17,970 nt of DNA from a virus (IMGVR_UViG_2718218128_000004), one strand, 5' to 3'. Numbered from the stretch's first letter, positions 2,777-17,970 are shown. Notes: generated by a model from the sequence alone, not told the origin. Translations and numbers: made by a program.

Positions 2777-2855
2777 TTGCCTGAAATTTATGCCGTTTAA
2801 AATCATGACGTTAGGAGCACTGTTTTTTAACGATGGCGACAAAATGGCGGCAGCG

Positions 2856-3074
2856 TCAAAGAGAGAGCGCCACCTGTCCTGATTTCATTGGATGCGGCTG
2901 AACCGGATTTGACTCTTTTGGCGTTGCAATCGAACGAACAAAAGTTTCATGGGTAACAAAAGTATGGCTGCAGTTAATGTTCTGGCACTGGTTGTAACGC
3001 TCTTTGGTCAATGAAGATACCTGAAAACTGCTGCGAGTATGGGCGGCACTTCCACACAGTGGGCAAATCATCAT
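2856..3074 (-). CDS. ogr: Ogr/Delta-family zinc-finger late transcription activator
   Basis: 72-aa product from ATG at 3074 (MMICPLCGSAAHTRSSF...ERYNQCQNINCSHTF...) with the C-x2-C...C-x4-C zinc-binding pattern and clear similarity to P2 Ogr as I recall it; RBS GGGGAG about 10 nt upstream. The track ORF starts 11 codons earlier, which I consider less likely. Confidence 0.85.
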   Translation of the reverse strand: MMICPLCGSAAHTRSSFQVSSLTKERYNQCQNINCSHTFVTHETFVRSIATPKESNPVQPHPMKSGQVALSL

Positions 3075-3111
3075 TTTTCGAGTTCTCCCCATTTTTGCTA
3101 AATTCACAATA

Positions 3112-3139
3112 ATGATACCGCATTATTCCATTTTGAAAA
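3112..3139 (-). promoter_or_regulatory. Putative sigma70 promoter for ogr
   Basis: On the minus strand TTTTCA (3139-3134), 16-nt spacer, TATCAT (3117-3112), about 40 nt upstream of the ogr start codon. Read by eye only. Confidence 0.3.
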
Positions 3140-3274
3140 CTTAAAAGTTCTCCATTGCGAAGAATCACTCCATTTCGAAATCATCAATCTTCACTTCAAG
3201 CTCCAAACTGGTCGTAAAACCGTTATCCGGGCTGACAGTATGCGTCAGGGTGGTAATAGTCCATTCCGCATCAT

Positions 3275-3814
3275 CTACTGTGAATGCGGGTCCGGTGCGG
3301 CAAGATGTTTTGCCATCTTATCATCCACGAACACCTTCAGCTCCAGTACCTTGTCATCCACATACTTGCGGGTTGCCAGCACGACGGCAGGGTCGATTTT
3401 CAGGGTGATATTGTCCGTGCTGCTGGTAATCAGCACCATGCGCACGGTCTGGGTGCGCCCGCTGCCTTCAGCCAGTTGCGGCTTATAGCTTTCCGGGCAG
3501 TTGCCTACGGCAATCAATGCCCCGGACTCATCAAACAGACCCACTTCACGTATCCACCAACCACCCTCATTTTCAGGGATCACCTGTTCAGCAATAATCT
3601 GGCTGCTGTTCTGCGGGTCGATATAGAGCATATTCAGCGCAGCCCGGCGTTTCTCATTTACCAGTGCCGTCTGCTTTGCGTCCGGCGTCGGCAATGCTCC
3701 GCCGCCATCGCCCACCGCCATATGGGTAATTTTTAGCGGCACACCGAGCGCGGCGGCGCTGGCAAGTTTCGCCGCGCCAATATCCGTCAGCAGGGTATAA
3801 AATTTTGTGCTCAT
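3275..3814 (-). pseudogene. H: Tail fibre protein H, N-terminal fragment (truncated)
   Basis: 179-aa ORF whose translation (MSTKFYTLLTDIGAAKLA...MAVGDGGG...ESYKPQLAEGSGRTQT...) resembles the N-terminus of the P2 H tail fibre (about 670 aa as I recall); the ORF stops at 3275 and the downstream genes G to D are absent. Confidence 0.75.
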
Positions 3815-15841: not shown

Positions 15842-15852
15842 AGGAATAAAAC

Positions 15853-16830
15853 ATGACGCCCGACAATAAAAAATATGAAATGGAAGGTGACTTGGAATGG
15901 AGAGACTATTATGACATTTTAAATGACAGATCAAATAACCTTAATGAAAATGAACGTGCTTACCTTAGTGACTTGTTACGAGATGGGGACTTATATAATT
16001 TCAGAGATTATTACAGGAAACTCATTAAGAAGAAAAAAATGAATCAAAACAACAAAGAGGAAGTTTTTTTTGGTAGTGAACAGAATGAAGCATTAAATAA
16101 TCTACGGCAAGAGCAAAAAAAATATAGAGAACTAGCTGACTCCTATGCTAAACGTTTAGCTGATATTGAAGAGTATAGTTCTATATTGCACTTAAGAAAT
16201 GAGAACTTAGAAAATTTAGTTTCTGAGAAAGAAGCGCTTCTTGAACAATCGGTATCAAGAATTAAACAACTTGAAGCATCTAATAACGAATTACAAAGCC
16301 GAGTACAACAAGAGAGAATTGATGAAAAAATCCCCGGATATGTAGATAGCGTTAAGAGTGAATTAAGTTCAGATGATTTATATTTCATTAAAATGTCGCA
16401 AGTATGGGCTTTTGCTGGCTGTTTTTTTGGGGTTCTTGCTGTAGTTGCATCATTTTACACACTCTACGCCACCGTTGACTTTAATAATCTTAAAGGCTTT
16501 GAACTAGTATACATTTTTACTCGCGGATTAATTGGCATTTCTATCCTGTCATGGCTAGCATACATATGCCTCGGGAACTCTAAAAAATATACGCATGAAT
16601 CAATTCTGCGAAAGGATAGAAGACATGCATTAATGTTTGGGCAAGTATTTCTGCAAATTTACGGCTCTACATCAACAAAAGAGGATGCTGTATTAGTATT
16701 TAAAGACTGGAATATGTCAGGTAACTCCGCATTTTCTGACAAAACAGAACTTCCTCCGGGAATCCAATCTTTATGGGATTCAGCTAAGGAAAAAATAAAG
16801 CCAAGTGCACCTGACAAATCACCGGAGTAA
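15853..16830 (+). CDS. Hypothetical membrane protein (325 aa), coiled-coil N-terminal domain with two TM helices, co-transcribed with cI
   Basis: ATG 15853 with AAGGA 8 nt upstream, 11 nt after the cI stop; AT-rich; heptad-like acidic region (NENLENLVSEKEALLEQSVSRIKQLEASNNELQSRVQQERIDEK) then hydrophobic segments VWAFAGCFFGVLAVVASFYTLYATV and LVYIFTRGLIGISILSWLAYICLG. Confidence 0.65.
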   Translation: MTPDNKKYEMEGDLEWRDYYDILNDRSNNLNENERAYLSDLLRDGDLYNFRDYYRKLIKKKKMNQNNKEEVFFGSEQNEALNNLRQEQKKYRELADSYAKRLADIEEYSSILHLRNENLENLVSEKEALLEQSVSRIKQLEASNNELQSRVQQERIDEKIPGYVDSVKSELSSDDLYFIKMSQVWAFAGCFFGVLAVVASFYTLYATVDFNNLKGFELVYIFTRGLIGISILSWLAYICLGNSKKYTHESILRKDRRHALMFGQVFLQIYGSTSTKEDAVLVFKDWNMSGNSAFSDKTELPPGIQSLWDSAKEKIKPSAPDKSPE

Positions 16831-16892
16831 AACACAATGTTTATTTCATCCTAATCATACATTGACCACTGGTCAAACATACAGTTAAATTT

Positions 16893-16917
16893 AGCCCTCT
16901 GATATGAGGGCTTTTTT
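16893..16917 (+). terminator. Rho-independent terminator/attenuator immediately upstream of int
   Basis: Hairpin agccctc-tgatat-gagggct (16893-16912) followed by TTTTTT, ending at the int ATG (16918). Confidence 0.5.
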
Positions 16918-17970
16918 ATGGCAGTACGAAAACTCACCACCGGAAAATGGCTTTGCGAATGTTACCCCGCCGGACGTAGTGGGCGTCGTGTGCGTAAACA
17001 ATTCGCCACCAAAGGCGAAGCTCTGGCTTTTGAGCGTCACACGATGGACGAAACCGAAGCAAAGCCCTGGCTGGGTGAATCAGTGGATCGTCGAACACTG
17101 AAAGACGTGGTTGAGCTATGGTTCAAACTACATGGTAAATCTCTGACAGCTGGGCAGCATGTCTATGACAAATTGCTGTTGATGGTTGACGCTCTGGGCA
17201 ATCCCCTTGCAACCGATCTCACATCTAAAATGTTTGCCCACTATCGAGATAAACGCCTGACAGGTGAGATCTATTTCAGCGAGAAATGGAAAAAAGGAGC
17301 AAGCCCGGTCACTATTAACCTGGAGCAAAGCTATCTAAGTAGTGTTTTTAGCGAACTATCCCGCCTGGGCGAATGGTCGCATCCGAACCCACTGGAGAAC
17401 ATGCGAAAATTCACTATCGCAGAAAAAGAGATGGCATGGCTTACCCATGAGCAGATTGTTGAATTGCTGGCTGATTGCAAACGTCAGGACCCAATTCTGG
17501 CACTGGTAGTTAAGATATGCTTAAGCACAGGCGCACGCTGGCGTGAAGCCGTAAATCTTACCCGCTCACAGGTGACTAAATACCGAATTACCTTTGTCAG
17601 AACGAAGGGGAAGAAAAACAGAAGCATCCCTATCAGTAAAGAGCTTTACGAAGAGATCATGGCGCTTGATGGGTTCAATTTCTTTACAGACTGCTATTTT
17701 CAATTTTTATCCGTGATGGAAAAAACGTCTATCGTGCTCCCTCGCGGTCAACTGACACACGTTCTGCGCCATACGTTTGCGGCGCACTTCATGATGTCGG
17801 GTGGAAATATCCTGGCCTTACAAAAAATTCTCGGGCATCACGATATAAAAATGACTATGCGTTACGCACATCTGGCACCGGATCATCTGGAAACGGCGCT
17901 CCGTTTCAATCCTCTGGCAACGCTGCCAAGTGGCGACAAAGTGGCGGCAGCGGTTGGCATTACCCCGTAA
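16918..17970 (+). CDS. int: Tyrosine site-specific integrase (P2/186 family)
   Basis: 350-aa ORF with tyrosine recombinase signatures: conserved HVLRHTFA box, LGH motif and catalytic Tyr in MTMRYAHL; N-terminus (MAVRKLTTGKW...GRRVRKQFATKGEALAFE) typical of P2-family integrases; stop codon is at the window end. Confidence 0.9.
   Translation: MAVRKLTTGKWLCECYPAGRSGRRVRKQFATKGEALAFERHTMDETEAKPWLGESVDRRTLKDVVELWFKLHGKSLTAGQHVYDKLLLMVDALGNPLATDLTSKMFAHYRDKRLTGEIYFSEKWKKGASPVTINLEQSYLSSVFSELSRLGEWSHPNPLENMRKFTIAEKEMAWLTHEQIVELLADCKRQDPILALVVKICLSTGARWREAVNLTRSQVTKYRITFVRTKGKKNRSIPISKELYEEIMALDGFNFFTDCYFQFLSVMEKTSIVLPRGQLTHVLRHTFAAHFMMSGGNILALQKILGHHDIKMTMRYAHLAPDHLETALRFNPLATLPSGDKVAAAVGITP

Follow-up and report, generated by a model that had tools for sequence, protein, structure and literature searches.

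A 186-type prophage of the P2 family in rybB, shortened by two probably recent deletions

How does a prophage come to keep its lysogeny and replication genes intact while almost all of its virion genes are missing? The question is raised by a window of 17,970 nt, meaning the whole stretch of DNA analysed here, from whose first base the coordinates in Table 1 are counted. A first-pass annotation had recognised a defective P2/186-type prophage in it and had taken the selective retention as the mark of a domesticated prophage kept for its cargo. The first half of that statement is sound. For the second half, we think it very probable that the locus is instead a 186-type prophage of the "Rybb" group, inserted in rybB and cut by two recent illegitimate deletions.

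Located at the 3' end of rybB, the element extends from 2779 to 88 nt past the end of the window; it belongs to the P2 family and carries a lysogeny switch of the 186 type. It is 15,280 bp long and is bounded by a 14-bp direct repeat. One copy lies inside the T-run of the rybB 3' terminator; the search beyond the window that the first-pass annotation had recommended found the second copy of ATGGGTTTTTTGTT 75–88 nt past the end, between int and rcdA. The host neighbours are ybjL on one side and rcdA on the other, and in K-12 MG1655 the ybjL-rybB-rcdA order is uninterrupted and the insertion site is empty. The earlier proposal of an insertion beside ybjL that K-12 lacks is thus upheld, with the exact site now placed in the rybB sRNA gene. 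The proposed start at 2777 has to be shifted, since the att core ends at 2778, so that prophage DNA begins at 2779. An att core at the rybB 3' end, with a copy at each end of the element and ybjL and rcdA as flanks, is the Rybb arrangement, and the prophage's own tyrosine integrase would have inserted it there.

Table 1. Features of the prophage and its insertion site (positions in the window).
Feature	Position	Strand	Evidence
rybB sRNA gene	2700–2778	+	Rfam RF00110, 105.3 bits, full length; same as K-12 rybB
ogr-proximal att core, ATGGGTTTTTTGTT	2765–2778		Window against K-12 (L003), KFu019 (L001) and same-strain contig L030
ogr, late-gene activator, intact, 72 aa	2856–3074	-	Pfam Ogr_Delta, E=7e-22
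D', final 113 nt of tail gene D	3165–3277	-	Collinear with D 3' end in L006, L026, L002
Junction 1 (D'/H'), 2-bp microhomology TA	3276–3277		blastn against intact prophages L006, L026; sequence inspection
H', N-terminal 179 codons of tail fibre gene	3275–3814	-	Pfam Phage_tail_fib, E=5e-66
Gene I, baseplate, intact, 201 aa	3811–4416	-	Pfam Tail_P2_I, E=3e-54
J', C-terminal ~171 of about 302 codons	4409–4923	-	Pfam Baseplate_J, profile 154-254/255
Junction 2 (J'/Q'), 3-bp microhomology CAA	4921–4923		Comparison with intact prophages L006, L026
Q', C-terminal ~193 codons of portal gene	4921–5504	+	Pfam Phage_portal, profile 142-277/321
Cassette 1 gene 3, 221 aa, restriction-endonuclease (PD-(D/E)xK) fold	5568–6233	-	
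Cassette 1 gene 2, 144 aa, without recognisable domain	6233–6667	-	phrog_11490 alone
Cassette 1 gene 1, 368 aa, best fold match RdgC (DNA-binding protein)	6680–7786	-	
cos (predicted), GGCGTGGCGGGGATACGAG	7947–7965	-	15/19 identical to 186 cos; conserved flank
SOS-type operon, position of 186 tum	8102–8709	-	Sequence reading; promoter scan; phrog_698 and phrog_2100; relatives with DinI
 88-aa ORF	8102–8368	-	
 62-aa ORF	8447–8635	-	
 LexA box, CTGTACACATATACAG	8667–8682		
 Promoter-like site	8709–8682	-	
Cassette 2, 124-aa then 152-aa protein	8874–9703	+	ORFs, translations
Replication initiator A, 794 aa	9775–12159	-	Pfam Phage_GPA, E=9e-127; alignment with relatives, P2 and 186
Early operon, all intact	12156–14560	-	Pfam; lengths equal to relatives; tblastn against 186
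 dam	12156–13013	-	Pfam MethyltransfD12
 TraR/DksA-like gene	13010–13237	-	Pfam
 DUF2732 gene	13237–13470	-	Pfam
 DUF5347 gene	13538–13879	-	Pfam
 fil	13843–14043	-	tblastn against 186
 cII	14051–14560	-	Pfam Phage_CP76
apl/cox-like excisionase-repressor, 73 aa	14593–14814	-	Position; 73-aa ORF kept in all relatives
cI repressor, 312 aa	14903–15841	+	Pfam Phage_CI_repr (2 stretches) and Phage_CI_C
Accessory gene between cI and int, 325 aa	15853–16830	+	Translation; phrog_2628
Tyrosine integrase, 350 aa	16918–17970	+	Pfam Int_N and Phage_integrase; similarity to 186 Int (see text)

In the late region, Q, J, I, H, D and ogr are homologous to and collinear with those of P2 and 186, and alignment, as the first-pass annotation had advised, gives the remnants 55–66% protein identity to their P2 and 186 counterparts by tblastn, in the P2/186 order. 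Four further genes match 186 only by tblastn, at 69% identity for cII, 82% for fil, 54% for int and 30% for cI. The 186-type switch is recognisable from the Pfam families Phage_CI_repr, Phage_CI_C and Phage_CP76, with apl assigned by its position and a sub-threshold excisionase match (TIGR01764, E=1e-3).

Collinearity with two complete prophages, L006 and L026, is interrupted at exactly two points. At junction 1, about 9.6 kb is gone, comprising most of D, then U, T, E, FII, FI and the invertase, the tail-fibre variable segment and the 3' part of H. At junction 2, the loss is about 9.55 kb and, as read off the L026 annotation, covers the 5' part of J, W, V, S, R, lysC, lysB, lysA, K, Y, X, L, M, N, O, P and the 5' part of Q. 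The element has no gene left for capsid, terminase, tail sheath, tail tube, tape measure, baseplate V/W or lysis, and every late promoter was lost along with them, so that particle formation and host lysis should be beyond its capacity. Two independent deletions would have taken a prophage of about 34 kb to the present 15.28 kb.

The first-pass annotation had listed ogr, gene I and fragments of H, J and Q, all of which are present; it had missed the short remnant D'. H' is identical to the intact H of strain 65COLEC at 537 of 537 nt, its reading frame being closed by a stop codon that arose at junction 1. J' is identical to the intact J of the same strain (512/512 nt), and gene I, whose operon promoter is deleted, differs from the 65COLEC gene at a single position (605/606 nt). 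Q' matches the intact Q of strain KFu019 at all 581 of 581 nt. For D', identity to the two relatives compared reaches just 92.9%, so the exact parent phage is not among the prophages examined. The ogr product is 55% identical to P2 Ogr and 54% identical to 186 B.

On the lysogeny and replication side, int, cI, cII, dam and A have no internal stop and their lengths match those of relatives, in agreement with the first-pass annotation, which had called these genes and apl intact. The stop codon of int is the last codon of the window. In cI, the N-terminal HTH domain is duplicated in tandem ahead of the CI C-terminal domain, and the repeat is visible in the translation; the 186 repressor, in contrast, has a single HTH and 192 aa. 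CI should still be expressed and confer immunity against homoimmune phages. The HUH and active-site tyrosine motifs of A are intact in an alignment with P2 and 186 A; its C-terminal ~110 aa have been replaced in mosaic fashion. The predicted 19-nt cos adjoins the portal end of the genome, as in the P2 family, and lies in a conserved region of about 7939–8090 that is kept in L002, L006, L007 and L026. In the SOS-type operon, where 186 encodes Tum with its DinI-like part, an unrelated 88-aa ORF replaces the DinI-like gene, and it has no significant match in a PDB sequence search.

Three accessory cassettes stand out from this core by a GC content of 31–37%, against 50–57% for the phage genes, and they are swapped among otherwise near-identical phages. 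In cassette 1, the D/ExK residues of the nuclease-fold protein are invariant, and the 144-aa protein has no match in Pfam, PADLOC or PDB. Cassette 2 occupies the interval from the A stop codon to the SOS promoter. Its 152-aa protein has three hydrophobic segments; neither of its proteins has a domain match in Pfam, PADLOC or NCBIfam, and the 124-aa ORF finds nothing significant in PDB. An early impression that 8091–9773 was absent from complete E. coli genomes was mistaken. The segment 8091–10100, cassette 2 included, is present at 99.5% identity in 16 complete genomes, for example in the complete-looking MIN10 prophage. The third cassette is the single gene between cI and int. The N-terminal half of its product is coiled-coil, the protein has two hydrophobic segments and no significant PDB match, and exactly the same protein occurs in 343 collection blocks, in the order cI-orf-int in every one. 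PADLOC 2.0 gives no match for any of the 10 accessory ORFs of the element, Pfam and NCBIfam give none for the cassettes, and NCBIfam returns only sub-threshold noise (RdrD at 18 bits, cut-off 230). The cassettes are probably expressed by the element.

The positions of the cassettes are familiar. Accessory and defence genes of P2 phages concentrate in two hotspots, one at Q-cos-A and the other next to the integrase (Rousset et al. 2022, PMC9122126; Moura de Sousa et al. 2026, PMC13586616). Two of the cassettes here flank cos within the Q-to-A interval, and the third separates cI from int. The cassette 1 trio is listed as WP_021580613, WP_021580614 and WP_021580615 in Table S5A of Rousset et al., where it is not among the systems cloned or assayed (PMC9122126). 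It is not the validated "hp+hp+hp" system of that study, whose proteins are unrelated in length and sequence, and cassette 1 has no PADLOC model; a literature search with the cassette 1 accessions and PHROG ids found no paper. From its location and its folds, a nuclease-fold protein with an RdgC-like partner, cassette 1 is a plausible candidate anti-phage system. Conserved across Enterobacterales at a P2 hotspot, it is the practical lead from this locus and a mildly new item.

The site is familiar as well. Defective P2-type elements at rybB have been named "Rybb" in E. coli B, W and Crooks (Archer et al. 2011, PMC3032704); retron Ec86 is found in the copy of E. coli B. These share the site and gene order of the present element. 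The E. coli B-type locus (L007) is 92% identical to 9774–14829 of the window and is likewise defective by internal deletions. However, they are different deletions: it keeps P, Q, O and V–H and has lost the N-to-K segment and FI-to-D. Its hotspot cargo also differs, a retron in place of the three-gene nuclease cassette, as does the cI/int-proximal module. Coliphage 186 (NC_001317) resembles the element in its CI/Apl/CII switch, Fil, A, the LexA-controlled operon beside A, the Ogr-like B and cos, but it integrates in ileY, is complete and has no dam, whereas the present element sits in rybB, is truncated and has dam. Truncated P2-like elements with accessory genes nearly identical to those of intact phages have been described, and in defective P2 elements pseudogenisation affects the primase/replication gene more often than any other core gene (PMC13586616). 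In this the element differs, in that A is intact and late genes alone are lost. Prophages at rybB, P2 accessory hotspots and defective P2 elements in which defence genes are conserved have all been described before. The element on its own carries little weight. It is an ordinary, recently crippled P2/186-family prophage, a further case of decay at the rybB site by large internal deletions in which immunity, replication and hotspot genes stay. It is a usefully clean case, with junctions mapped to the nucleotide, microhomology of 2–3 bp and undecayed fragments.

The age of the deletions bears most directly on why those genes were kept. The retained H', J' and Q' show zero decay relative to the intact genes of complete prophages. 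The architecture with both junctions was found in none of 5,426 complete E. coli genomes and in only about three assemblies. Together, these observations are best explained if both deletions are very recent on an evolutionary scale. The term is relative, as recombination with intact phages could also keep the fragments identical. With deletions so recent, the intactness of the remaining genes says little about selection. The early half would have survived mainly because of that recency. An asymmetry may have contributed: loss of lysis and virion genes would be harmless or beneficial to the host, and loss of cI with the early lytic genes still present would be harmful. Long-term domestication is not required for the observed pattern, and selective retention should not be equated with domestication where deletions are recent.

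Domestication proper would mean that selection maintains the regulatory core and the cargo in a host protected by CI immunity and the cassettes, while the virion genes are discarded. The cargo is intact, it sits in the published P2 defence hotspots (PMC9122126, PMC13586616), one cassette has a nuclease fold, and a benefit to the host is plausible. Clearly truncated prophages at this site, with spans of 7.7–22 kb, also occur in 6 of 60 complete genomes of a spread sample, and several of them keep int, cI and A, although this set of truncated relatives is biased, having been found through similarity to the early region. Against domestication, H', J' and Q', useless as fragments, and the promoterless gene I are kept alongside the cargo, and the pseudogene fragments are still identical to functional genes. 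Every retained block is 99.5–99.9% identical to blocks of complete prophages, leaving no time for selection to act; the A-to-int block, for example, is 99.9% identical to the prophage of strain DETEC-E601, judged complete on the stretch from the tail-fibre genes to int. Vertical persistence in a diverged host clade, with purifying selection on the retained genes, would be expected of a domesticated element and finds no support in an architecture limited to those few assemblies. We therefore regard domestication, which the first-pass annotation favoured, as unlikely.

A more adventurous reading is a helper-dependent "mini-186" that would excise and replicate upon SOS induction and be packaged, satellite-like, by a co-resident or superinfecting Rybb-type phage. 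Every function this would need in cis and in trans is present, and int, apl, both att sites, A with an internal origin, cos, ogr and the SOS operon match those of complete phages; the cos region is the same as in prophages whose portal gene is intact. When capsid-size redirection fails, P2-size heads take up P4 genomes as multimers, and a 30.6-kb dimer of the present element would fill such a head. The possession of cos and the absence of virion genes fit a P4-like satellite; however, no P4 marker (sid, psu, delta, alpha primase) was found in Pfam or PHROGs, replication would proceed through the phage's own A, and ogr is the only gene present of the capsid-size or helper-exploitation kind. The layout of H', I, J' and Q' resembles accidental debris, and the architecture is not recurrent. 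The idea is speculative, and we consider it very improbable. The related proposal that a newly arisen element of this kind is spreading the nuclease-based candidate defence cassette by way of a related complete phage is also decidedly improbable, marginally less so; if true, it would be a satellite caught at birth through simple deletion.

That both junctions are misjoins in a genome that really carries a complete prophage, the refuting possibility raised in the first-pass annotation, has next to no chance of being right: nothing positive speaks for it beyond P2-like prophages often being multicopy (median 3 matching places per genome), while all 17,970 bases, both junctions among them, recur at 100% identity in an independent Logan (de Bruijn) assembly of SRR28568604, the contig of that assembly passes through H'IJ' without a break and so speaks against another near-identical copy in the genome, two further assemblies have the same neighbourhood, and 2–3 bp is too little for a repeat-collapse misjoin.

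Recent illegitimate deletion remains our reading of the junctions, and several more specific origins were considered and set aside. A sharp mosaic boundary in H at codon 179 was not seen between L006 and L007. The Q breakpoint is not shared with strain SW071614: the junction in that strain lies at a distance of 32 bp and must have arisen independently. A Cin/Gin-type invertase is encoded by relatives, together with a tail-fibre segment that can be inverted, but a deletion mediated by the invertase is rejected for junction 1, the cix-like inverted repeats being about 500 nt off the breakpoint (L006 13215–13247 versus 13745). A recombination hotspot at junction 1 had been suggested by six Logan contigs from different samples that end exactly there (...CACAGTA); these ends are due to a synonymous polymorphism, TAT/TAC, that is common at the base which follows, and to an exact-protein look-up that selected such contigs.

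As judged by sequence similarity, the element that begins at 2779 is a prophage of the P2 family whose switch is of the 186 type, because its late-gene remnants resemble their counterparts in both P2 and 186 (55–66% protein identity by tblastn), the matches of cII (69%), fil (82%), int (54%) and cI (30%) are to 186 only, and nothing in the window matches P2 C, cox or B. D', H', J' and Q' designate the remnants of late genes D, H, J and Q. A Pfam search of the window recognized A, dam, DUF5347, cII, cI and int in addition to the late genes so marked in the table. The first-pass annotation had given the same inventory and had regarded the fragments as P2-family homologs, and both stand except that it overlooked D'. 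Its view of the regulatory and replication core as intact also holds: there are no stop codons within any of the early genes, and their lengths equal those of relatives.

Features of the window and nucleotide identity of the late-gene remnants to intact copies
Feature	Position	Strand	Remarks	Identity
grxA, ybjM, ybjL	window start, ahead of rybB
rybB	2700-2778		sRNA gene; Rfam RF00110, 105 bits
att core ATGGGTTTTTTGTT	2765-2778		tail of rybB terminator
ogr	2856-3074	-	Pfam
D'	3165-3277		113 nt
H'	3275-3814	-	N-terminal 179 codons of tail fiber gene; Pfam	537/537 nt (65COLEC)
Junction 1	3276/3277		D'-H'; microhomology 2 bp (TA); ~9.6 kb absent
I	3811-4416	-	intact; Pfam	605/606 nt (65COLEC)
J'	4409-4923	-	C-terminal part; Pfam	512/512 nt (65COLEC)
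Junction 2	4921-4923		J'-Q'; microhomology 3 bp (CAA); ~9.55 kb absent
Q'	4921-5504	+	C-terminal part of portal gene; Pfam	581/581 nt (KFu019)
Cassette 1	5568-7795	-	three genes between portal stop codon and cos
cos	7947-7965		15/19 identical to 186
SOS operon	8102-8709	-	62-aa and 88-aa ORFs
LexA box CTGTACACATATACAG	8667-8682		perfect; overlaps promoter-like site
Cassette 2	8874-9703	+	124-aa protein, then 152-aa protein with three hydrophobic segments
A, C-terminal ~110 residues	9775-10086		mosaic replacement
cI	14903-15841		312 aa
325-aa ORF	15853-16830		between cI and int; coiled-coil N-terminal half, two hydrophobic segments

Prophage DNA runs through the final base of the window. The direct repeat anticipated outside it exists: a second copy of ATGGGTTTTTTGTT lies 75–88 nt beyond the window end in the same strain's contig, directly ahead of rcdA. 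The element is 15,280 bp long with att cores at both ends. In K-12 MG1655, ybjL, rybB and rcdA are contiguous with no insertion, in line with the first-pass annotation's statement that K-12 lacks it. The crossover core sits in the T-run of the terminator at the 3' end of rybB, which leaves rybB whole at the junction on the ogr (ybjL) side. At its int end, the phage contributes a small stem-loop (AACCC...GGGTT) and, after it, a T-run. P2-type elements Rybb*W, Rybb*B and Rybb*Cr have been described at the "rybB ncRNA" of E. coli W, B and Crooks (PMC3032704).

The reduction of the morphogenetic region to remnants comes down to two deletions. Relative to the complete same-site prophages of CFSAN061762 and 65COLEC, the window is collinear and broken only at junctions 1 and 2. 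Read off the 65COLEC annotation, the losses at junction 1 are most of D together with the whole of U, T, E, FII and FI, the invertase and the tail-fiber variable genes; those at junction 2 are W, V, S, R, every lysis gene, X, L, M, N, O and P. No late promoter survived the deletions, which leaves the intact gene I as a stranded passenger. An artefactual assembly, the possibility that would have undone the first-pass annotation, is very unlikely, because a Logan assembly (run SRR28568604) matches all 17,970 bases at 100% identity and covers both junctions, the element's unique mosaic A protein occurs in the same neighborhood in three assemblies, and repeat-collapse misassembly does not yield overlaps of 2–3 bp.

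The ends of six Logan contigs, all from unrelated samples, fall precisely on nucleotide 3277, and we considered whether junction 1 is a hotspot. We attribute this to coincidence, since H has a common polymorphism (TAT/TAC) at the following base, which splits de Bruijn graphs there, and an exact-protein look-up picks only such contigs. Strain SW071614 has a truncated prophage at the same site with its own D'|Q' junction (11917–11951 of its sequence). That deletion is an event independent of those in the window; its Q breakpoint lies 32 bp from the window's.

The genes to which H', I, J' and Q' are identical or nearly so are intact copies in complete prophages of other strains. Other blocks of the element are similarly close to copies elsewhere. 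From inside A to the int end, it is 99.9% identical to the DETEC-E601 prophage, in which, over the stretch covered, the genes from the tail fiber to int are all present. The segment 8091–10100 is found at 99.5% identity in 16 genomes, e.g., MIN10, and Q' with cassette 1 and cos at 99.5% in ~28 genomes. The two-junction layout was found in none of 5,426 complete genomes. Since the fragments and blocks are near-identical to complete prophages and the layout is absent from those genomes, we infer that the element arose very recently, by deletion, from a normal mosaic phage. D' is only 92.9% identical (8/113 mismatches) to the D of relatives whose adjoining ogr and flank are ~99% identical, which suggests a mosaic boundary near the ogr–D intergenic region in the parent phage.

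The best explanation, and one we hold with considerable confidence, is that an ordinary Rybb-type prophage was recently truncated by accident. The early half would have been kept because too little time has elapsed for decay. In addition, loss of lysis and virion genes would presumably be free of cost to the host, and loss of cI with the early lytic genes left would be costly. At the rybB site, truncated prophages turn up often and in various forms: of 60 complete genomes taken as a spread sample, 6 have shortened prophages spanning 7.7–22 kb and ~45 have the site empty, and other comparisons brought up further cases. The first-pass annotation was right in calling the element a defective P2/186-type prophage, but its further proposal of domestication, with the element kept for its cargo, is improbable and lacks support. 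That defective P2 elements retain conserved defense genes is, as a general idea, already published (PMC13586616). The deletions here are very recent, with fragments near-identical to intact genes, and intact genes in such a derivative cannot be read as evidence for selection. A helper-dependent, satellite-like life is speculative and still less probable. The element adds one case to the known Rybb-type P2 prophages; the original observation is confirmed and its interpretation partly supported.

The LexA-box operon is in the same location as the tum operon of 186, tum being its SOS operon gene. Where relatives have a DinI-like (Tum-type) gene, the window has the 88-aa ORF (phrog_2100), which may be an alternative SOS antirepressor. 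The CI of 186 has a single HTH, whereas this one has a tandem duplicated N-terminal HTH (residues ~24–88 and ~131–195, the repetition being clear in the sequence) followed by the CI C-terminal oligomerization domain. The two-HTH cI is widespread among prophages at the rybB site.

Three cassettes of low GC (31–37%) occupy positions published as variable loci of P2 (PMC9122126; PMC13586616), and location and fold are what suggest a role in defense for all three. The three genes of cassette 1 encode proteins of 368, 144 and 221 aa, of which the first is RdgC-like and the last has a restriction-endonuclease fold of the BamHI type, with its D...ExK residues invariant. No match to these genes was found in Pfam, PADLOC or NCBIfam, and no methyltransferase of its own is adjacent. 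The trio is conserved across Enterobacterales and listed in Table S5A of Rousset et al. 2022 (PMC9122126), outside the systems tested there; it is a different system from their validated "hp+hp+hp". As a candidate system, this nuclease-fold cassette is the sole lead deserving experiment.

Cassette 2, whose proteins have no recognizable domains, separates the stop codon of A from the SOS promoter; most relatives have only ~150 nt of intergenic DNA there. A retains its HUH and tyrosine motifs, and its replaced C-terminus falls 10 codons short of that in most relatives. Hotspot swapping extends into the 3' end of A, because the identity to DETEC-E601 ends at 10086, from where the sequence is that of the MIN10-type module. 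The 325-aa ORF lies where P2-like phages have their minor "integrase-side" hotspot, and 343 collection blocks contain this exact protein, with the order cI-orf-int in every one.
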